Shown in pieces: positions 13,788-20,478 of a DNA stretch of 64,000 nucleotides. Source of the DNA: Verrucomicrobiota bacterium (lineage in GTDB: Bacteria > Verrucomicrobiota > Verrucomicrobiia > Limisphaerales > SIBE01); the NCBI GenBank assembly GCA_016209525.1, contig JACQWK010000590.1:382-64381 (forward strand). Reading direction: 5' to 3'. The notes below the pieces were generated by a model. It was given only the letters and a program-made list of their open reading frames with translations. It was not told the DNA's origin and did no database searches. Position 1 is the first letter of the stretch, and each line of letters starts with the position of its first letter. The position numbers and the translations under genes are program-made.

Positions 13788-14910
13788 GACCCAGCGCGAA
13801 GGGCTCCCAAGAGAGCGCCACCGCCATCGGTGTGAAGGCGGCCAGGGTTGCCGCGATTCCCCAGCCCAGCCCACTGCCCAAGAGCATGCCCAGCAGCGTC
13901 ACCGACAGCGCTTCGGCCAGGAATTGGTGGAAAATGTCTCGCTGCGTGGCGCCGACGGCCCGGCGCAAGCCGATTTCCTTGGTGCGCTCACTCACGGAGA
14001 TGAGCTGGATGTTCATCAAGACGATCCCGCCCACCAGAAGGCTCAGGCCGGCCAACACCGTGAGCAACGTGGAGAGCGTGCCCGAAATGCCCCGCACAAC
14101 TTTGGCCACGTCAGCCGCGGTGCGCACTTGGAAGTCGTCCTCTTCCGGCGGCGTGATGCGATGCCGCTCGCGCAGGATGGCGCGGATTCTCTCCCCGGCC
14201 TCTTCCAGTTGGCTATCGTCTTTGAGTTTGAGGCGGATTTGGCTCAGGTGTTCCTGGTTGAGCAGCCGTCGCATCCCGGTGGTCAGTGGAATCAGCGCGC
14301 GGTTGTCCATATCGCTCCCCATGGGACTCGTGCCCTTGGGCTCGAGCACCCCTTTAACCTGGAAACGGACGTTATTGACCTGAACGAACTGTCCGACGGG
14401 ATCGGCATCGCCGAAGAGCGCCTGGCGGAGCGATTGACCTAGCACGCAGACCCGAGCCAGCGACGCCACGTCTTCGCCATTGATCGGATCGCCGCGCTGC
14501 ACGTCCCATTCCCAGGCGACATGCCAATCCGGCTCGACGCCGAAGACCGGGGCCTGGCTCTGGGCCGCGCCGGCTTTGAACGTCGCGCCGCGCGCCTGAA
14601 CGGCAGGTGCCATCGCCTCAATCCCGGCCACTTGGCTGCGGATGACATCCACGTCCTCGAGCCGCAGTGTGACCACGCTGTCGGCGCCGGACGGCGGAAA
14701 GGTTTTGCCCCCGCCGGCCATCACCATGATGGCGCGGAAGCCGAAGACACTGACGCGTTTCATCACGGCGCGCTCGGTGCCGGCGCCCATGGCCATGATC
14801 ACGGTCAGCGCGGCAATGCCGATGAGCGTGCCGACCATCATGAAGAACGTGCGCAACTTATGGCTGCCCAGGGCCTGGATGCCTGCTTTGACGAGGCGAA
14901 TGAGTTTCAT
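13785..14910 (-). pseudogene. MacB-like ABC permease, last TM/C-terminus lost
   Basis: HKLRTFFMMVGTLIGIAA..ISVSERTKEIGLRRAVGA..QFLAEA; lacks terminal PARRAA..P..ALR. Confidence 0.8.
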
Positions 14911-16472
14911 CGTCCCTCCTGTTGGGTTGAGGCGGCCGCCGCAGATTCCGGTGGCAACAGTTCCAGTTCCTGCGCGGCATCGCGTGGTCTGGGCACGGGA
15001 CGATCTTCGGCAATCTGACCGTCGCGCATCAGCAGGACGCGATCCGCGTGCTCGGCGATGTCCTGGTCGTGCGTGACCACGATAATCGTGCGGCCTTCGC
15101 GATGAAGCCGCTGAAAGATGGCGAGGATTTCCAGCCCGCTGCGGCGATCCAGATTGCCGGTCGGTTCGTCCGCCAGAATGATGGCCGGATTGGTCATCAA
15201 GGCGCGGGCGATGGCCACACGCTGCTGTTGGCCGCCGGACAGTTCGCTGGGCCGATAATGAATGCGGTCTGCCAGCCCCACTGACCCCAGCGCTGCTTTG
15301 CCCAGATGCTCGGCGTCTTTGGGATAAACGTCCGCATAAATGAGCGGCAGCAGCACGTTCTTCAACGCGTTCGCGCGGGCCAGCAGATGGAACTGCTGGA
15401 ACACGAAACCGATCTTGCGGCTGCGCAGGTGCGACAAGGCGGCATCGTCGAGGTTCATCACCTCCGTGCCGTCCAGTCGGTAGCGTCCACTCGTCGGTTT
15501 GTCCAGGCAGCCTAGCAGGTTCAACAAGGTGGACTTGCCCGTGCCGGACGCACCCATGATGGCGGCGAACTCGCCGGCCTGGACGCGGAAGTTCACCCCT
15601 TTGAGCACCGGGGTCGTCATCGTTCCGGTGGCATACGTTTTCTCCAGGTTTTCTTGAATGACGGCCTTCGGGTAGATCGCCGCAACCTTGCCCTCGAATT
15701 CCTTGCCGGGAAAGGCATCCATCGTAAACAGGGCATGTTGGCCCAAGCCCACCTTGCCGATGTCCACCTCGTCCACGAACGCATCCACCAGCAACCGGTT
15801 GAGATCAATGAGCGTGACAAACGTGGGCGCGCTCAAACCGGCGGAAACGGTTTCACCCTCCTGAGTGGACACCGAGTCGATCACACCGGAGATGGGCGCG
15901 GTGATGGTGGCGTAAGACAGCCGCGCCTCGGATTCCTGGAGGGCCGCTTGGGCGGCCTCGACCTGTCGTTTTGCCAATCGTAACGCCGCCTCGGCGACCG
16001 CGAACGTCATGCCGGCGCTGTCCAGTTCCTGCTGGCTGGCGATCTGGTTGGTCCGCAAAGACTGCGCGCGGTCCAGTTCCAATGCGGCAAGTTTCAGTCG
16101 CGCATCGGCGTCGGTCACGCGCGCTTCGCCCACCGCCACGTCCGCCCGGCGCTGGGCCACGACGGCCTCCAAATCCGCTTTTTTGTCCAGTTCGGCGATC
16201 ACTTGGCCTTGCGTGACGCGGTCACCAATGTTGGCGGGCAACCGCTGCAATTTCCCTGAAATGCGCGACCCGACTCTGACCTCCGCGCCCACTTGTGGTT
16301 TGACCGCGCCCGTGGCCTGGACAGCGGAGGCGAAGTCCCGCTGCGCGACCCGGGCTGTTGCCGGTCCGGCAGCCGGCTGGTGTTGCCTGGTTTTCCACCA
16401 CCAAGCCACGGTAACGGCGACACCCGCCAATACGATGACGAGGCCGACGGCAATTTTGGTTCTGCGCTTCAC
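14907..16472 (-). CDS. In-frame fusion of truncated MacA-like MFP and MacB-type ABC ATPase
   Basis: MFP up to [10 protein letters not shown], then [34 protein letters not shown]; likely start GTG 16472. Confidence 0.75.
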
Positions 16473-16565
16473 AGCATGGCCCGCGAACTGTCCTGGCCGC
16501 GTTTCATTTGTTGAGCCGTCGTCAAACGGCGGCGCAACGCGCGCCAACAGTCCGTTTCCGTTGAT

Positions 16566-16595
16566 TAAACGGGCGAACCGCGAAAAACCCCCTTG
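16566..16595 (-). promoter_or_regulatory. CnrH-like ECF promoter
   Basis: CAAGGGGGTTTTTCGCGGTTCGCCCGTTTA; twin at 23314-23343. Confidence 0.65.
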
Positions 16596-16655
16596 CGTGT
16601 GCCGATAATACTCTTACCGCGGAAAGAACAGCAAGGTGTGGGCGATTCGGCGCGG
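16590..16655 (-). pseudogene. Relic of second chrA copy (linker plus 3' end)
   Basis: 16590-16627 matches 20872-20909 at 32/38 nt; 16634-16655 identical to chrA 21491-21512. Confidence 0.7.
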
Positions 16656-16783
16656 CGGCGGAGTGCGAGGGGTGGCTGACGCGGTAACGAATCCCGATGC
16701 ACCGGGACTGCTGGGCGGGATTCTGCCGTCGGATTATCTGGGGCAATCCCGACGAGTCGGGCCGGCGGGTGGAAGTGCTCCAA

Positions 16784-16858
16784 CCTTCGCTGAAGCTACG
16801 GCTTGGCAGGCCGCGATGCCGGCCGTCAACTGCTTGTCCCGCCGTAGTCAGACGAAGG
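16784..16858. repeat. Imperfect palindromic REP-like element
   Basis: CCTTCGCTGAAGCTACGGC ... GCCGTAGTCAGACGAAGG. Confidence 0.55.
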
Positions 16859-16896
16859 CGGACGCACGTTCCACCGCGCGTGACGCAGGACAAGTT

Positions 16897-16916
16897 TATG
16901 TTGCATATGCAACATA
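16897..16916. promoter_or_regulatory. Perfect 20-bp palindrome, operator-like
   Basis: TATGTTGCATATGCAACATA. Confidence 0.55.
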
Positions 16917-16958
16917 CAGTTGGTCGTGGCAATCGTGCTGCGGTTGACTGATTGGGAC

Positions 16959-17064
16959 GGGCTGAAAGCCCGAAAGAAAATAGCCCAGGGCAAAGCGAGT
17001 CTGCGAGCGACGCCCTGGGTCAACCGTCCACAAGATTTCCAAGCCCTGAAAGGGCGGCAGAAAT
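16959..17064 (+). repeat. Left ~105-bp inverted repeat (REP-like, internal hairpins)
   Basis: GGGCTGAAAGCCC..TAGCCCAGGGC..GCCCTGGG..GCCCTGAAAGGGC; 31-nt block identical to reverse complement of right arm. Confidence 0.9.
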
Positions 17065-17101
17065 CTCGCCAACGGCAGGGTCAATGGGTAAACTCCGACT
17101 C

Positions 17102-18946
17102 ATGCCGACCGTCGAAAACATGACCACCCCAGAAAACGTGTTCAAGGGAGACGCAACACAACTGGCAGGCATCGACATTGATTCACCGCCTTCAAAGGTG
17201 AAGACGCCGACGTGTGAATACTACCTTGAGGCTTACGGCCAAGTTGCGAAAGAGGCCGAAGAGAAGGGTGAAACCCAGAAGGCGGCGGTCTATCGCTTCT
17301 TGCAGGTCATCGTTGGATTTCATCCGAGTTTCGACACGCCCTCTCAACCGTTCGTCCCGATGTGGCAGATGGAAGGCAAGCGTTCGCTCATCCCATCAGA
17401 CCTCACGGCTGCCGACATCGAAGTGGTTCGTGTTCTGGCACAACAAACGACAGACGCGGCGCTCCGCGCCCGCCTTCATGATGTGTTATGGGAACTGGCG
17501 AACGACCACGTTGCTGGCGCGGAGGCTGCCGGCTGTTATGCAGCCGCGGCGGAGAAGCTCGATGCCGCTGGTGACTGGACGTTCGCGGTGACGAGCTTCA
17601 AGCGCGCCCTTTATCTCGCCAGCAGATTCGGGCGCAACAAGCCCGTTTTCGAGGATACGGCGAAGACCGTTGTCGCGGCAGCGAAGCGTGCCGCGACCGG
17701 TGCCGACACTTTCCGCTGCTGCCAACTCATGCGCTTGATGCTCTCGGCAGGCGTCGGAGAACCGAACGAATTTGCGGCGATCGCGTCTGGAATGGCCGCT
17801 TCGGCAAAGGCAAGTGGCGACACGTGCAAGGCCAAAGCCTATTGGGAGGTCGAAGCGGAATGGCAGAGACGCGCGAAAGATGCCATCGCTGAACAGAAGG
17901 CGTGGTTGGCTGCTGCGGAGGCTGGGGTCACGGAAGCCGAGAGCCGAGCGCAGGGTAAGGGAGCGAGCTTCATGGCAGCCGCTTCGCTACTGGCAAAAGC
18001 GATTGAGGAGTTGAGACAAGCAGGGGCAGCAAAGGAGAGGATTGCGGAACTGCGTCGCTGTTTGAATGAGTGGCAAGAGCGTTCGCTTGCGGAGTTCCAG
18101 TCGTTCTCCACCGGGATGGACATTTCCAAACTGGTCCTCGGAGCGCGTGAGCATGTGAAGGGAGGCGATTTCCCCACAGCCGCTCTCAAGCTGGCGTTTG
18201 GCCAAGATTTGTCAGACCCGAAAGGAATCAAGGACGAGGTTGTCGAGAACGCAAAGCAAGCGCCACTGACGTATTTGATGGGTGCAGCCATCGTGGACGA
18301 CCAAGGGCGAACTACTGCGCGAAAGGAGAGTCTGCTCCACATCAAGGGTGAAGCAGCAGAGCAGGCCCTTGAAGCAGAAGCATTCTCTCATGCCTCACAC
18401 TTCCACTGGCCGTTGAGAGTTGATGGGTTTGTCGAGCCAGCGCGCGCACAGATTCTGAACGACCATAAACCGACGTTCCAAGACCTGCTGTTCATCGTCC
18501 GCAACAACCCGTTCATTCCGCCCGGTCACGAAGGCATCTTCCTTCGCGGGCTTCACGCCGGATTCCACGGCGACTTCGTCGTGGCGACGCATCTACTCAC
18601 GCCACAGATTGAAAACTCACTGCGCTACGTCCTCGAATCCCATGGCGTCGATGTCTCCAACCTGATGTCGGACGGCACGCAGCCGGTGAAGGTTCTCGGT
18701 GCAATCTTCGGCATGGCGGAAACGAAGCAGGTTTTCGGCGAGCCGTTGTGTTTCGAGCTTCGCGGCTGCCTCATTGAGAAAACTGGCTACGATTTCCGAA
18801 ATCGCGTCGCACACGGGTTCGTCCACGAAGGCGAATGCTACTCACACGCTGGCGTGACGGTATGGTGGCTTGTCTGGCGCATTTGCTTGACGCCAATTTT
18901 CCGAACAATTGCCGAGCAGAAAGCCTCCGCCGGGCAGTCCGCGTGA
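17102..18946 (+). CDS. DUF4209-family HEPN-domain protein (putative RNase/defence)
   Basis: C-terminal HLLTPQIENSLRYVL..GYDFRNRVAHG (RxxxxH); helical N-terminus; start 17102 or 17120. Confidence 0.8.
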   Translation: MPTVENMTTPENVFKGDATQLAGIDIDSPPSKVKTPTCEYYLEAYGQVAKEAEEKGETQKAAVYRFLQVIVGFHPSFDTPSQPFVPMWQMEGKRSLIPSDLTAADIEVVRVLAQQTTDAALRARLHDVLWELANDHVAGAEAAGCYAAAAEKLDAAGDWTFAVTSFKRALYLASRFGRNKPVFEDTAKTVVAAAKRAATGADTFRCCQLMRLMLSAGVGEPNEFAAIASGMAASAKASGDTCKAKAYWEVEAEWQRRAKDAIAEQKAWLAAAEAGVTEAESRAQGKGASFMAAASLLAKAIEELRQAGAAKERIAELRRCLNEWQERSLAEFQSFSTGMDISKLVLGAREHVKGGDFPTAALKLAFGQDLSDPKGIKDEVVENAKQAPLTYLMGAAIVDDQGRTTARKESLLHIKGEAAEQALEAEAFSHASHFHWPLRVDGFVEPARAQILNDHKPTFQDLLFIVRNNPFIPPGHEGIFLRGLHAGFHGDFVVATHLLTPQIENSLRYVLESHGVDVSNLMSDGTQPVKVLGAIFGMAETKQVFGEPLCFELRGCLIEKTGYDFRNRVAHGFVHEGECYSHAGVTVWWLVWRICLTPIFRTIAEQKASAGQSA

Positions 18947-19051
18947 TTTTCTTTCGCCCTTCAGGGCTTGGATTCATTTTGTTCGTTGACCCAGGGCTGC
19001 GCTCGTTTCACTTCGCTTGCCCTGGGCTATTTTCTTTCGGGCTTTCATCCC
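18946..19051 (-). repeat. Right ~105-bp inverted repeat
   Basis: CGCCCTTCAGGGCTTGGA..GTTGACCCAGGGC..TTGCCCTGGGCTATTTTCTTTCGGGCTTTCA; begins at the HEPN stop codon. Confidence 0.9.
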
Positions 19052-19087
19052 TTTCAGTTTGCAGCCCGCTCGCGTCGGCGGCCACGG

Positions 19088-19246
19088 TTTGAAAAGCTTT
19101 TCCACCTTCGCTTTCACGGCCTCATCATTTTGATCCGCGGCGGCCAGGGGCGTTTGAAAACCTTCGCCGGGAATTTTCTTCGTCGCGTCGATGCCGAGTT
19201 TGCTGCCGCTGGCGATTTCGCTGGTGGCGTGGTTGTCCGTTTTCAT
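19088..19246 (-). pseudogene. UbiD-family decarboxylase C-terminal tail, copy 1
   Basis: MKTDNHATSEIASGSKLGIDATKKIPGEGF..EAVKAKVEKLF, compensating +1/-1 indels; GSKxGIDAT is a UbiD C-terminal motif. Confidence 0.8.
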
Positions 19247-19602
19247 TTTTCTGGAAGCCCTCGCATGCGAATCGCGAAGTCGTCCACGACGCTGAAATGG
19301 CCGGACCAATCGTCGCGCGAAGCGAGCACGGTGGACAGTCGCTCGGCAACGGCTGCGGACGACGGCTGTGAGATGCGAAACAAAATGATTCCATGCGATG
19401 CTGTTGCGCCGCGCCGGAAAACCAATTCGCCAAAATCCTTGTCGAATGTGATGAGGAGACGCTCCTCCGCCAGAGCGCGGGCAAGCACGTCAGGATCGGG
19501 ACTTCCCGGCGCGGCTTCGCGAATCCACAAAACGGCATGCCCGCTGTTGCGCAGCCGGGTGACGCACTCCTCCGGGATATTCTCGTTGGCGCAGAGCCGC
19601 AT
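19243..19602 (-). CDS. DUF5615 PIN-like toxin
   Basis: MRLCANENIP..LRNSGH..PDPDVL..ERLLITFDKDFGELVF. Confidence 0.85.
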   Translation of the reverse strand: MRLCANENIPEECVTRLRNSGHAVLWIREAAPGSPDPDVLARALAEERLLITFDKDFGELVFRRGATASHGIILFRISQPSSAAVAERLSTVLASRDDWSGHFSVVDDFAIRMRGLPEK

Positions 19603-19611
19603 GGATGGAGA

Positions 19612-19839
19612 TCATCCGGCAACCGCGAAAACCTTTTCTTCAGTCACCCGTTCCTGGGCATACGCCACGCAGGCGCGCACCTGTTCGCTTGTGATGCGGT
19701 AATTGCGAATGATTTCCTGCTCCGGCCAGCCTTGCGCAATGAGACCGAGAATGAATTCAACGGCCAGCCGCGTGCCGCGAATCACGGGTTTGCCGACAAG
19801 CACGGCGGGGTCTGCGGTGATGTAGTCTTGCCATTTCAT
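19612..19839 (-). CDS. DUF433 antitoxin
   Basis: ITADPAVLVGKPVIRGTRLAVEFIL..GW..IIRNY.IT.EQVRACVAYA. Confidence 0.9.
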   Translation of the reverse strand: MKWQDYITADPAVLVGKPVIRGTRLAVEFILGLIAQGWPEQEIIRNYRITSEQVRACVAYAQERVTEEKVFAVAG

Positions 19840-19849
19840 GCGTAGAAAT

Positions 19850-20044
19850 CTACCCGTGCGACCGCAGGTTGTCAGTTGCGAAAAGCTTCTCCACCTTCGC
19901 TTGCACCTCTTCATCCATCTTGATGAGCGCCGGCCAGGGGCGTTTGAAGCCTTCGCCCGGCAATGTCTTCATCGCGGCGATGCCGAGTTTGCTGCCGCTG
20001 GGGATTTCGCTGATGGCGTGGTCGGGTACGTCGCAATCTTTCAT
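19850..20044 (-). pseudogene. UbiD-family C-terminal tail, copy 2 (open 64-aa ORF)
   Basis: MKDCDVPDHAISEIPSGSKLGIAAMKTLPGEGFKRPWPALIKMDEEVQAKVEKLF; direct repeat of 19088-19246. Confidence 0.8.
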
Positions 20045-20478
20045 TTTTTCACCAACGGATTGCGCACCTTGAGCTGCGGAAAGGCGGAAAAGTCGCGATC
20101 TGCCGACCACAGTTCGCTCGCGCCGTGATGCAGGCAGAGCGCGGCGATGCGCGCATCGTGAATGCGCGGGCCTTTCAATTTCGCCGCCACGGAAATCTCG
20201 CGCAGCTTCTCGAGATAGCCCGGGCTTTCGGCAAGCAAATGCAATTGCGGCGACGCGAATAAGGCAACCACAAACCCAAAAGCTTCAGACAGTGTGGACG
20301 CCGGTTTATAGATGCCGGGATGGGTAACGATGCCGATGAATTCGTGAATGCACGGCCACGGAATCGCCCACGGCGCAGGCTGATGCCGTAAGGAATCAAC
20401 TATTTGCGCAGCCGCAGTGTGGAATGGGCTGCCTTCCTTATGCGCGTAGATGAGGAGATTGGAGTCAACGGCGATCAT
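20041..20478 (-). CDS. vapC: VapC PIN-domain toxin
   Basis: MIAVDSNLLIYAH..EF..VTHP..HDARIAAL..LWSADRDFS.FP.LK..NPL. Confidence 0.9.
   Translation of the reverse strand: MIAVDSNLLIYAHKEGSPFHTAAAQIVDSLRHQPAPWAIPWPCIHEFIGIVTHPGIYKPASTLSEAFGFVVALFASPQLHLLAESPGYLEKLREISVAAKLKGPRIHDARIAALCLHHGASELWSADRDFSAFPQLKVRNPLVKK

Follow-up and report, generated by a model that had tools for sequence, protein, structure and literature searches.

Within a stretch of 64,000 nucleotides (hereafter the window) from a groundwater Verrucomicrobium, a single gene encoding a DUF7380-DUF4209 protein is tightly enclosed between two inverted arms. These arms are the left (L) and right (R) halves of a doublet frame of repetitive extragenic palindromes (REP) belonging to the Acido-Lenti-1 family. 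The slot between such arms is occupied by a Y1 transposase gene in sibling frames and, in the L/R subfamily to which the window belongs, by nothing, by remnants or by diverse conflict genes, and this content differs between near-identical loci. Since the arms pair L with R, the contents vary and the gene family lacks arms elsewhere, the frame is read here as conserved and the gene as a passenger lodged in the transposase slot. This reading, an asymmetric REP-doublet frame of the REPIN (REP doublet forming hairpins)/REPtron or TIRtron kind carrying the DUF7380-DUF4209 gene, is favored with a probability of roughly 0.55. A frame that persists as the unit of conservation while its content turns over fits better than a jumping cassette.

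Structure of the arms

The inverted repeat was resolved by a repeat search into three collinear segments of 35 nt (16959-16993/19017-19051, 97% identity), 21 nt (17004-17024/18985-19005, 90%) and 16 nt (17038-17053/18957-18972, 94%). A single mismatch in the 35-nt segment leaves an identical block of 31 nt, and the repeat reaches some 20 nt further outward, to positions 16937 and 19065. Upon BLAST comparison of the left arm with the whole 10.1-Mb assembly, the right arm was matched at 81% over 107 nt (E 1.3e-17). The core of the left arm consists of three hairpins: A (GGGCTGAAAGCCC), B (CCCAGGGC and GCCCTGGG, separated by a 20-nt loop) and C (GCCCTGAAAGGGC, at 17043-17055, with its partner GCCCTTCAGGGC at 18955-18966). 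The initial annotation of the window had described inverted arms of about 105 bp with a 31-nt identical block and GCCCTGAA(A)GGGC hairpins, the left one ending 37 bp before the ATG and the right one starting at the stop codon. These features are all seen in the sequence: the distance of 37 bp corresponds to the ATG at 17102, and the TGA stop codon (18944-18946) shares its final base, 18946, with the start of the right arm.

Both arms are long-loop variants of the Acido-Lenti-1 motif (RF01687, gathering score 37 bits; Table 1), with an insertion of 19-20 nt in the first loop. Folding as single-stranded DNA, compared to shuffled sequences, yielded z-scores of -4.2 for the left arm and -3.4 for the right. 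Among 35 aligned arms, hairpin A displays five to six compensatory changes and the stem of hairpin B is nearly invariant, a combination well suited to recognition through both sequence and shape. An ATAG precedes hairpin B in the L and R arms, and GTAG or ATAG does so in the sibling arms (CTAT/CTAC in the Rfam orientation); a GTAG tag is given as a mark of REPs in PMC3733652. No direct repeat bordering the arms, such as a target duplication would leave, was found by reading in the window or at the empty doublet L195.

Acido-Lenti-1 repeats and Y1 transposase genes

The Acido-Lenti-1 motif was defined in 2010 (PMC2864571) and is filed in Rfam as a small RNA (sRNA), with Acidobacteria as one of its two listed phyla. 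No link to transposases was found in the papers on the motif that were consulted. An Rfam scan of the host assembly listed 99 matches, 57 of which exceed the gathering score, and a hidden Markov model (HMM) built from the genome matches located 110 arms on 64 contigs. Neighboring arms separated by at most 6 kb form 41 pairs, of which 36 read outward, (-)(+), four are (+)(-) and one is (-)(-); the gaps within pairs cluster at 11-23 nt and 65-70 nt. The L-arm pattern had 0 matches in viral contigs.

The same assembly contains 24 matches to Y1_Tnp (PF01797), seven of them short IS200-like open reading frames (ORFs). Those on contigs C704 and C408, which score above the cut-off of the NCBIfam IS200/IS605 equivalog, have arms on both sides at 1-75 nt from the ORF ends, and those on C662 and C730 have an arm on one side. 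Our HMMs detected no arm at the remaining three (C89, C306 and C707); by eye, the C306 gene is accompanied by long-loop arms with a AGCCCAGGGT stem, a 15-nt loop and ACCCTGGG. Proteins similar to the IS200-like ORFs occur in 39 of 60 relatives. Across 30 Y1 loci (29 in relatives), arms were present on both sides in the (-)...(+) arrangement in 10, on one side or in another orientation in five, and absent according to our models in 15. The arms flanking the Y1 genes of G034:C125 and G010:C271 display the CCCAGGGC stem or the long loop, as in the window. The REP-type nature proposed for the arms in the initial annotation is thus upheld by RF01687 scores above the cut-off, by outward-reading doublets and by the same geometry around IS200-like Y1 genes. 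The search for what such arms enclose in the genome and its relatives returned Y1 transposase genes, nothing, remnants and other defense genes.

Contents of the L/R frames

Within the host assembly, L arms were identified on C487 (the contig of the window), C97, C361, C515 and C538, with 87-94% identity to one another, and R arms on C487, C97, C361 and C515, with 89-95% identity; L and R arms are 78-82% alike. These arms form four clear inverted L-R pairs in addition to C538, where the L arm has a weaker partner, and C355 bears a solo R-like arm. The contents of the five frames are unrelated (Table 1).

A 226-nt query was matched in 23 of the 60 relatives, in three of them through its palindrome part only, so that the arm itself was matched in 20. 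Arm identity reaches 94% in relatives, and one match of 92% lies in a different family; coding DNA around the window is just 77-85% identical within the genus. The 20 arm loci fetched from relatives comprise five inverted pairs with 1.6-6.4 kb inside, two loci with two arms in the same orientation and 13 with a single arm, 10 of which reach the end of their contig within 3.7 kb on the cargo side. Among the cargo of the relatives' frames are a methylase-specificity fusion, a further methylase and a nuclease-helicase.

Scanning of metagenomes with the L-loop pattern yielded 78 loci, 19 of which, some being duplicate records, hold (+,-) pairs; each pair consists of an L arm with a non-L partner. 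Their interiors, -2 nt at the shortest and 5 kb at the longest, comprise empty doublets, remnants and genes. The DndB cargo scores 347 bits against a cut-off of 328, and Pnkp and Hen1 are both above their cut-offs. On one metagenome contig, a complete Pnkp / 278-aa / Hen1 RNA-repair operon lies between an L and an R arm (L187:532-5474). In the empty doublet L195, the inner ends join exactly at the position where the cargo of filled frames begins. The inner border invariably reads ...GCCCTGAAAGGGCG(G/A)(C/A)AGAA, and in nine frames the stop codon of the cargo lies 0-22 nt from an arm.

Replacement of the content is apparent upon comparison of L175 with L163, which are 93.6% identical over the left flank and L arm and 97% identical over the R arm and right flank, and whose interiors of 314 and 731 nt are unrelated. 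L175 is a deleted remnant of a C515-type cassette that retains its 3' junction, and C361 corresponds to the GmrSD cassette of L166 with an internal deletion.

Table 1. Coordinates of the features described in the window, and contents of the L/R frames
Feature	Position	Strand	Evidence or content
Left outer flank with palindrome TTATGTTGCATATGCAACATA (16891-16922)	16652..16936		73-87% identical to the C97, C361 and C515 flanks; also in L117
Left (L-type) arm	16937..17067		Repeat search, BLAST; core 16959-17067, L-specific outer extension 16937-16958
RF01687 (Acido-Lenti-1) match in left arm	16958..17019	-	42.7 bits; outward-reading; 20-nt insertion in first hairpin loop
Passenger gene, DUF7380 + DUF4209 (C6orf70-type HEPN), PADLOC PDC-S39 match	17102..18946	+	Pfam, PADLOC, conserved RN(R/H)xAH
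Right (R-type) arm	18946..19065		Repeat search, BLAST; core 18946-19051, R-specific outer extension 19052-19065
RF01687 (Acido-Lenti-1) match in right arm	18990..19052	+	37.5 bits; outward-reading
ubiD' 1, UbiD-family 3' end fragment	19094..19234	-	tblastn with C83 UbiD, residues 477-523; directly outside R arm
DUF5615 (PIN-like) + DUF433 gene pair	19243..19914	-	Pfam; between both ubiD fragments; island context, outside the frame
ubiD' 2, second ubiD 3' fragment	19883..20092	-	tblastn; core 86% DNA-identical to fragment 1
PIN + VapB-like gene pair	20041..20759	-	Pfam; beyond ubiD' 2; island context
L/R frame C487 (window)			DUF4209 gene, PDC-S39
L/R frame C97			554-aa sigma-70 fusion
L/R frame C361			108-aa GmrSD_N fragment
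L/R frame C515			746-aa P-loop protein
L/R frame C538			1565-aa helicase-nuclease, PDC-S37 match E 2.7e-192
Empty doublets, interior -2 and 28 nt			L195, L146
Remnant interiors, 203-451 nt			L121/L186, L158, L175, L169, L143
Gene interiors, metagenomes			436-aa TIR protein; DndB; Pnkp + Hen1; MAD2-like methylase; SF1 helicase; GmrSD-like protein

The passenger gene

The gene enclosed in the window is intact and lies in a single open frame on the + strand (16952-18946). It encodes 614-620 aa, with in-frame ATGs at 17084, 17102 and 17120, the first being an alternative start. Pfam assigns DUF7380 (E 1.7e-36) and DUF4209 (PF13910, E 1.2e-10, 41.7 bits against a cut-off of 22.3) to the protein, and residues 37-608 align with positions 23-585 of the 595 positions of the PADLOC PDC-S39 model (E 2.4e-150). 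The FRNRVAHG motif (Rx4H) is retained as RN(R/H)(V/L)AH in three homologs that are 32-71% identical, among them a paralog on C287 (32%) and a gene of a Gammaproteobacteria metagenome-assembled genome (MAG; 71%). The domain match and the conserved Rx4H agree with the earlier description of a DUF4209 gene of the HEPN family with an RxxxxH motif. Judged from its sequence, the passenger is a HEPN-family candidate defense gene (PADLOC PDC-S39), PDC denoting a candidate in PADLOC names. No test of the anti-phage activity of PDC-S39 was encountered in a literature search, whose listing gave papers in which the name is merely mentioned. DUF4209 overlaps the C6orf70 HEPN family and has been noted in operons related to restriction-modification (Anantharaman et al. 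2013, PMC3710099).

The distribution of the passenger protein is patchy: it had no match in the 60 relatives searched and, with 27-46% identity, was detected in seven out of 400 genomes sampled across the phylum. A sequence search of the PDB returned no relative. None of eight other DUF4209 loci has arms, and the 71% identical copy of the Gammaproteobacteria MAG is likewise armless. A shortened, 76% identical copy in a Verrucomicrobiia MAG (L117) has retained the left flank and the palindrome together with a portion of the L arm. The GC content of the gene (0.583, compared to 0.591 for the genome) is uninformative on foreign origin. A sigma-70 scan of 16400-19400 detected 0 promoter-like sites, and a consensus scan found two terminator-like sites, both inside the gene on the opposite strand, and none within the arms.

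Outer flanks, ubiD fragments and genomic context

The left outer flank accompanies the L arms in the paralogous frames. The palindrome TTGCATATGCAA, with conserved surroundings, recurs at window 16891-16922, C97:501, C515:14411, C83:45011, L117, L160, L177 and L191 and at many sites in the relative G016; in several frames, it is located about 40 nt outside the L arm. Isolated copies are present at no fewer than seven places in G016, and the palindrome might be bound by a regulator. Units such as GCTGATGAAC or ACGGATGAAC form tandem arrays that often adjoin the outer ends of the arms (L120, L124, L127, L144, L180, L183, L188-L190, C538:9690-9726, L050 and L060).

On the other side, the R arm of the window is followed by a 3' fragment of a ubiD gene, and a second such fragment sits 800 nt beyond the first. 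The sole full-length ubiD of the assembly is found on C83 (Pfam UbiD), where a small ORF comes next, then a single diverged element resembling the arms, and the palindrome TTGCATATGCAA. The arm-like element (C83:44900-45000, L032) is composed of AGCCCAAGGT, a 15-nt loop and ACCTTGGGCT, and shares its type with the arms of the C306 Y1 gene. Fragments of the ubiD 3' end are present on about ten other contigs (C9, C97, C355, C361, C515, C272, C742 and C764, for example) and recur in tandem, with lengths of 40-230 codons, between small gene cassettes. In the relative G009, contig C113 (L047+L111) displays an array that starts with a full ubiD, continues with four to five fragments and terminates in an integrase and a DUF1376 gene; an L/R frame is located inside this array. 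Because ubiD 3' fragments recur in this manner and the G009 array combines a full ubiD with an integrase, the window looks, from its sequence, like part of an island of the kind built through repeated integration at the ubiD 3' end. The ubiD fragments were also considered as integron-like attC equivalents, a possibility rejected on the grounds that they are gene 3' ends of 40-230 codons and that an ordinary integrase ends the G009 array. The arms are not tied to the ubiD context: ubiD fragments lie near two of the 20 arm loci of relatives and eight of the 78 metagenome loci, and the outer flanks of arm loci are very diverse.

The window covers C487:382-64381 of the source assembly (G000), which comprises 10.1 Mb in 764 contigs and is estimated to be 93% complete with 4.8% contamination. 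Two genomes of the same genus measure 5.6 and 6.7 Mb, and diverged paralogs of many of the loci studied lie on other contigs of the assembly; despite the contamination estimate, a co-binned relative may be the source of some of these paralogous contigs. In same-genus genomes, collinearity of the region is lost and it is matched in pieces only. All eight annotated neighbors of the passenger gene, namely MacB, HlyD-ABC, DUF5615, DUF433, PIN, VapB-like, chromate transporter and ubiD fragments, are on the - strand, which agrees with the opposite orientation of the gene reported in the initial annotation. The VapB_antitoxin match (20.6 bits) is under the cut-off of 23.4. Upstream of the MacB-type permease gene, positions 14907-16547 form a single ORF of 546 aa that joins HlyD-type membrane-fusion domains with an ABC ATPase domain. 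Another palindromic repeat of about 135 nt, at 22098-22267 and also at 20799-20865, has matches on dozens of contigs of the assembly and in same-genus genomes. The summed contig depth at 20652-21000 amounts to 600-1850 in the best sequencing runs. Single Logan contigs from runs X1 and X2 join 19073 to 19881 and 19228 to 19892, linking the ubiD fragments and skipping the DUF5615/DUF433 pair, and one Logan contig joins the L arm to 19912 (17000->19912); these three single-contig joints probably come from paralogous or variant loci.

Interpretation and alternative explanations

In the mechanism favored here, Y1 transposases would seed and maintain the frames by recognizing, on single-stranded DNA, hairpin B with its (A/G)TAG tag. 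As soon as a gene is lodged in a frame, the arms of about 130 nt, which are some 90% identical across families, could act as portable homology, and arm-cargo-arm units might then replace one another by recombination through the shared arms. In addition, the outward-reading hairpins that immediately follow the stop codon probably terminate or stabilize the transcript. The passenger itself would most likely be a single-gene abortive-infection RNase, with a C-terminal HEPN site (Rx4H) and DUF7380 as a putative N-terminal sensor.

A number of observations weigh against this reading. No Y1 (PF01797) match was obtained in the frames of C487, C97, C361, C515 and C538 or at C355, a tblastn search of the 78 metagenome loci revealed no Y1 transposase gene or relic, and for the two Y1 proteins whose genes have related arms, the nearest relatives in the host assembly reach just 47-49% identity. 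Many of the relatives' arms stand alone, and at three of the 13 loci of this kind no partner is present in over 6 kb of sequence on the cargo side. The frames of the host assembly share 200-300 nt beyond the arms and a ubiD 3' fragment abuts seven of the 19 paired metagenome frames; part of the pattern may consequently come from integrase-driven accretion of the island at ubiD and not from the arms. In addition, recombination between arms explains swapping and leaves aside the first entry of at least 12 unrelated cargoes at an identical inner border. In a bolder proposal, the asymmetric L/R frames would be a dedicated system of gene capture and exchange, a 'REP-integron' serviced by HUH Y1 transposases that cut at the inner arm border and splice single, mostly anti-phage genes into the center of the doublet, the cassettes being traded among Verrucomicrobiota via the shared arms. 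We regard this proposal as speculative and rather improbable.

The initial annotation had inferred a non-autonomous REP-bounded cassette. Its REP frame with a candidate defense gene in the transposase slot stands, while movement of the unit as a whole finds no second-context copy in its favor. Under such an explanation, the arm-gene-arm unit would be excised and reinserted as single-stranded DNA by a Y1 transposase of the RAYT (REP-associated tyrosine transposase) type acting in trans, as proposed for REPINs. The geometry of the window does equal that of the transposase-bearing frames, and the L and R ends, like the left and right ends of IS200/IS605, differ from each other and are conserved from genome to genome. 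The arms, up to 92% identical in other families, are encountered in many unrelated flanking contexts, and the absence of a target duplication is expected of Y1 elements. However, no arm-gene-arm unit was found in two contexts among the loci compared: the recurring cargoes (TIR, GmrSD and DUF4209) were seen in the same flanks only, and the copies within the host genome share arms and outer flanks while their cargo differs. Moreover, no cognate transposase was found in the assembly, a cargo of 4-6 kb is long for the 'peel and paste' transposition of a single strand, and no excision joint across 16958..19052 was detected in the Logan contigs of four runs, which is weak evidence as contigs only were searched. 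Movement of the whole unit is therefore considered possible though unlikely. The arms might instead flank the gene incidentally, REP-type repeats gathering after stop codons as terminators or stabilizers and the gene having arrived with the integrase-driven ubiD island. The adjoining ubiD fragments, here and in the seven metagenome frames mentioned above, as well as the tandem fragments with integrase of G009:C113, speak for such an origin, as do the short distances between arms and stop codons in nine frames and the location of REPs mostly downstream of coding regions (PMC3733652). It is nevertheless doubtful in view of the strict pairing of L with R (19 of 19 metagenome pairs and four of four clear pairs in the host assembly), of empty doublets whose inner ends are joined exactly at the cargo position, of the scarcity of ubiD fragments near the arm loci of relatives (2/20) and of the lack of terminator-like sites in the arms by consensus scan.

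The sRNA label of Acido-Lenti-1 in Rfam, the covariation of hairpin A and the position of the right copy, which would fall in the 3' untranslated region of the gene, would also be compatible with arms that are structured small RNA genes regulating or neutralizing the enclosed toxin-like gene. What lies between these arms varies from unrelated genes to a transposase gene or nothing, DUF4209 genes elsewhere do without them (0/8 loci), and the inverted pairing (36/41 outward) implies that arm orientation tracks the frame and not any gene, making this explanation very unlikely. Still more remote is the view that the arms are attC sites of an integron, sites at which an inversion switch recombines, or the ends of a DDE-type miniature inverted-repeat transposable element (MITE) or mobile insertion cassette. 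In all three, inverted repeats surround a single gene, and the cargo is of a kind found in integron cassettes. On the other hand, Y1 is the sole transposase type found between such arms, target-site duplications are lacking, and a given cargo keeps one orientation relative to the L arm, with no strand-changing joint seen. Sites of the attC type are direct, one per cassette, and located beside an IntI gene, neither arrangement being encountered here. The DDE-type MITE or mobile insertion cassette was accordingly dropped after the Rfam and Y1 results, and the integron cassette was discarded in view of two inverted arms per gene and of the position of the 22 Phage_integrase matches of the genome, none of which is on the contig of the window.

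Significance

The usual view of REPs and REPINs, along with their Y1 transposases, is that of selfish or domesticated core-genome repeats that carry no genes. Recent gene acquisitions of Pseudomonas have been reported to lie in 'REP deserts' (PMC3390384). The REP-type frame appears here as a recurrent packaging of horizontally acquired defense genes, observed in one genome, in 20 of 60 relatives and on dozens of metagenome contigs, with exact borders and with a content that varies at a fixed locus. Should the arms take part in capture or exchange, they would represent a new route of defense-gene mobility. Scans for L...R arm pairs could also find new defense genes of Verrucomicrobiota independently of gene content.

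Comparison with known systems

The architectures of REPtron/REPIN-RAYT and TIRtron/TIRYT systems have been published (PMC3390384, PMC3733652). The frames described here resemble the REPtron or REPIN-RAYT systems (TnpA-REP) of E. coli and Pseudomonas fluorescens in the abundance of extragenic hairpin repeats with a 5' (G/A)TAG tag, in the inverted copies around a small IS200-like Y1 gene, in the gene-less doublets with fixed spacing and in the lack of target duplication. They differ in that the arms are three-hairpin modules of 105-130 nt instead of REPs of 20-40 nt, that the left and right halves differ in type (L and R), and that the slot holds defense-type genes of 0.3-6 kb in place of the transposase. 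Full-text literature searches returned no description of REPINs or RAYTs with passenger or cargo genes. TIRtrons (TIRYTs) are tyrosine transposase genes flanked by long, sometimes double-palindromic terminal inverted repeats (TIRs; Di Nocera et al. 2013, PMC3733652). The likeness lies in RAYT-like genes placed within long inverted repeats that form moderately abundant families, including in Acidobacteria (PMC3733652). Transposase-bearing and gene-less forms of TIRtrons are described, and the available part of the same report does not equate the TIRs with Acido-Lenti-1 or mention other enclosed genes (PMC3733652). While REP, REPIN and RAYT systems and TIRtrons are known, the new elements are the asymmetric L/R frame, its exact borders and the wide range of defense cargo.

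Passenger-carrying elements of DDE type, such as the mobile insertion cassettes of Bacillus cereus, MITE-bounded integron mobilization units and Tn3-derived inverted-repeat miniature elements (TIMEs), create target duplications and move as whole copies. Transposon-derived inverted repeats around a gene other than a transposase are common to these elements and to the window, whereas the repeats are here hairpin REPs of a Y1 system, without duplication, in a constant frame with variable cargo. In integron cassettes, attC is an imperfect palindrome that folds as single-stranded DNA after the stop codon, and the cargo is rich in toxin-antitoxin and defense genes. Single, tightly packed genes, a folding palindrome after the stop codon and a variable content at a fixed site are shared with such cassettes; the frames differ by their two inverted arms, by the absence of IntI beside them and by the relationship of the arms to repeats of Y1 transposases. 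The passenger, finally, resembles PDC-S39 and the C6orf70/DUF4209 HEPN family through its full-length model match and its DUF4209 domain with Rx4H.

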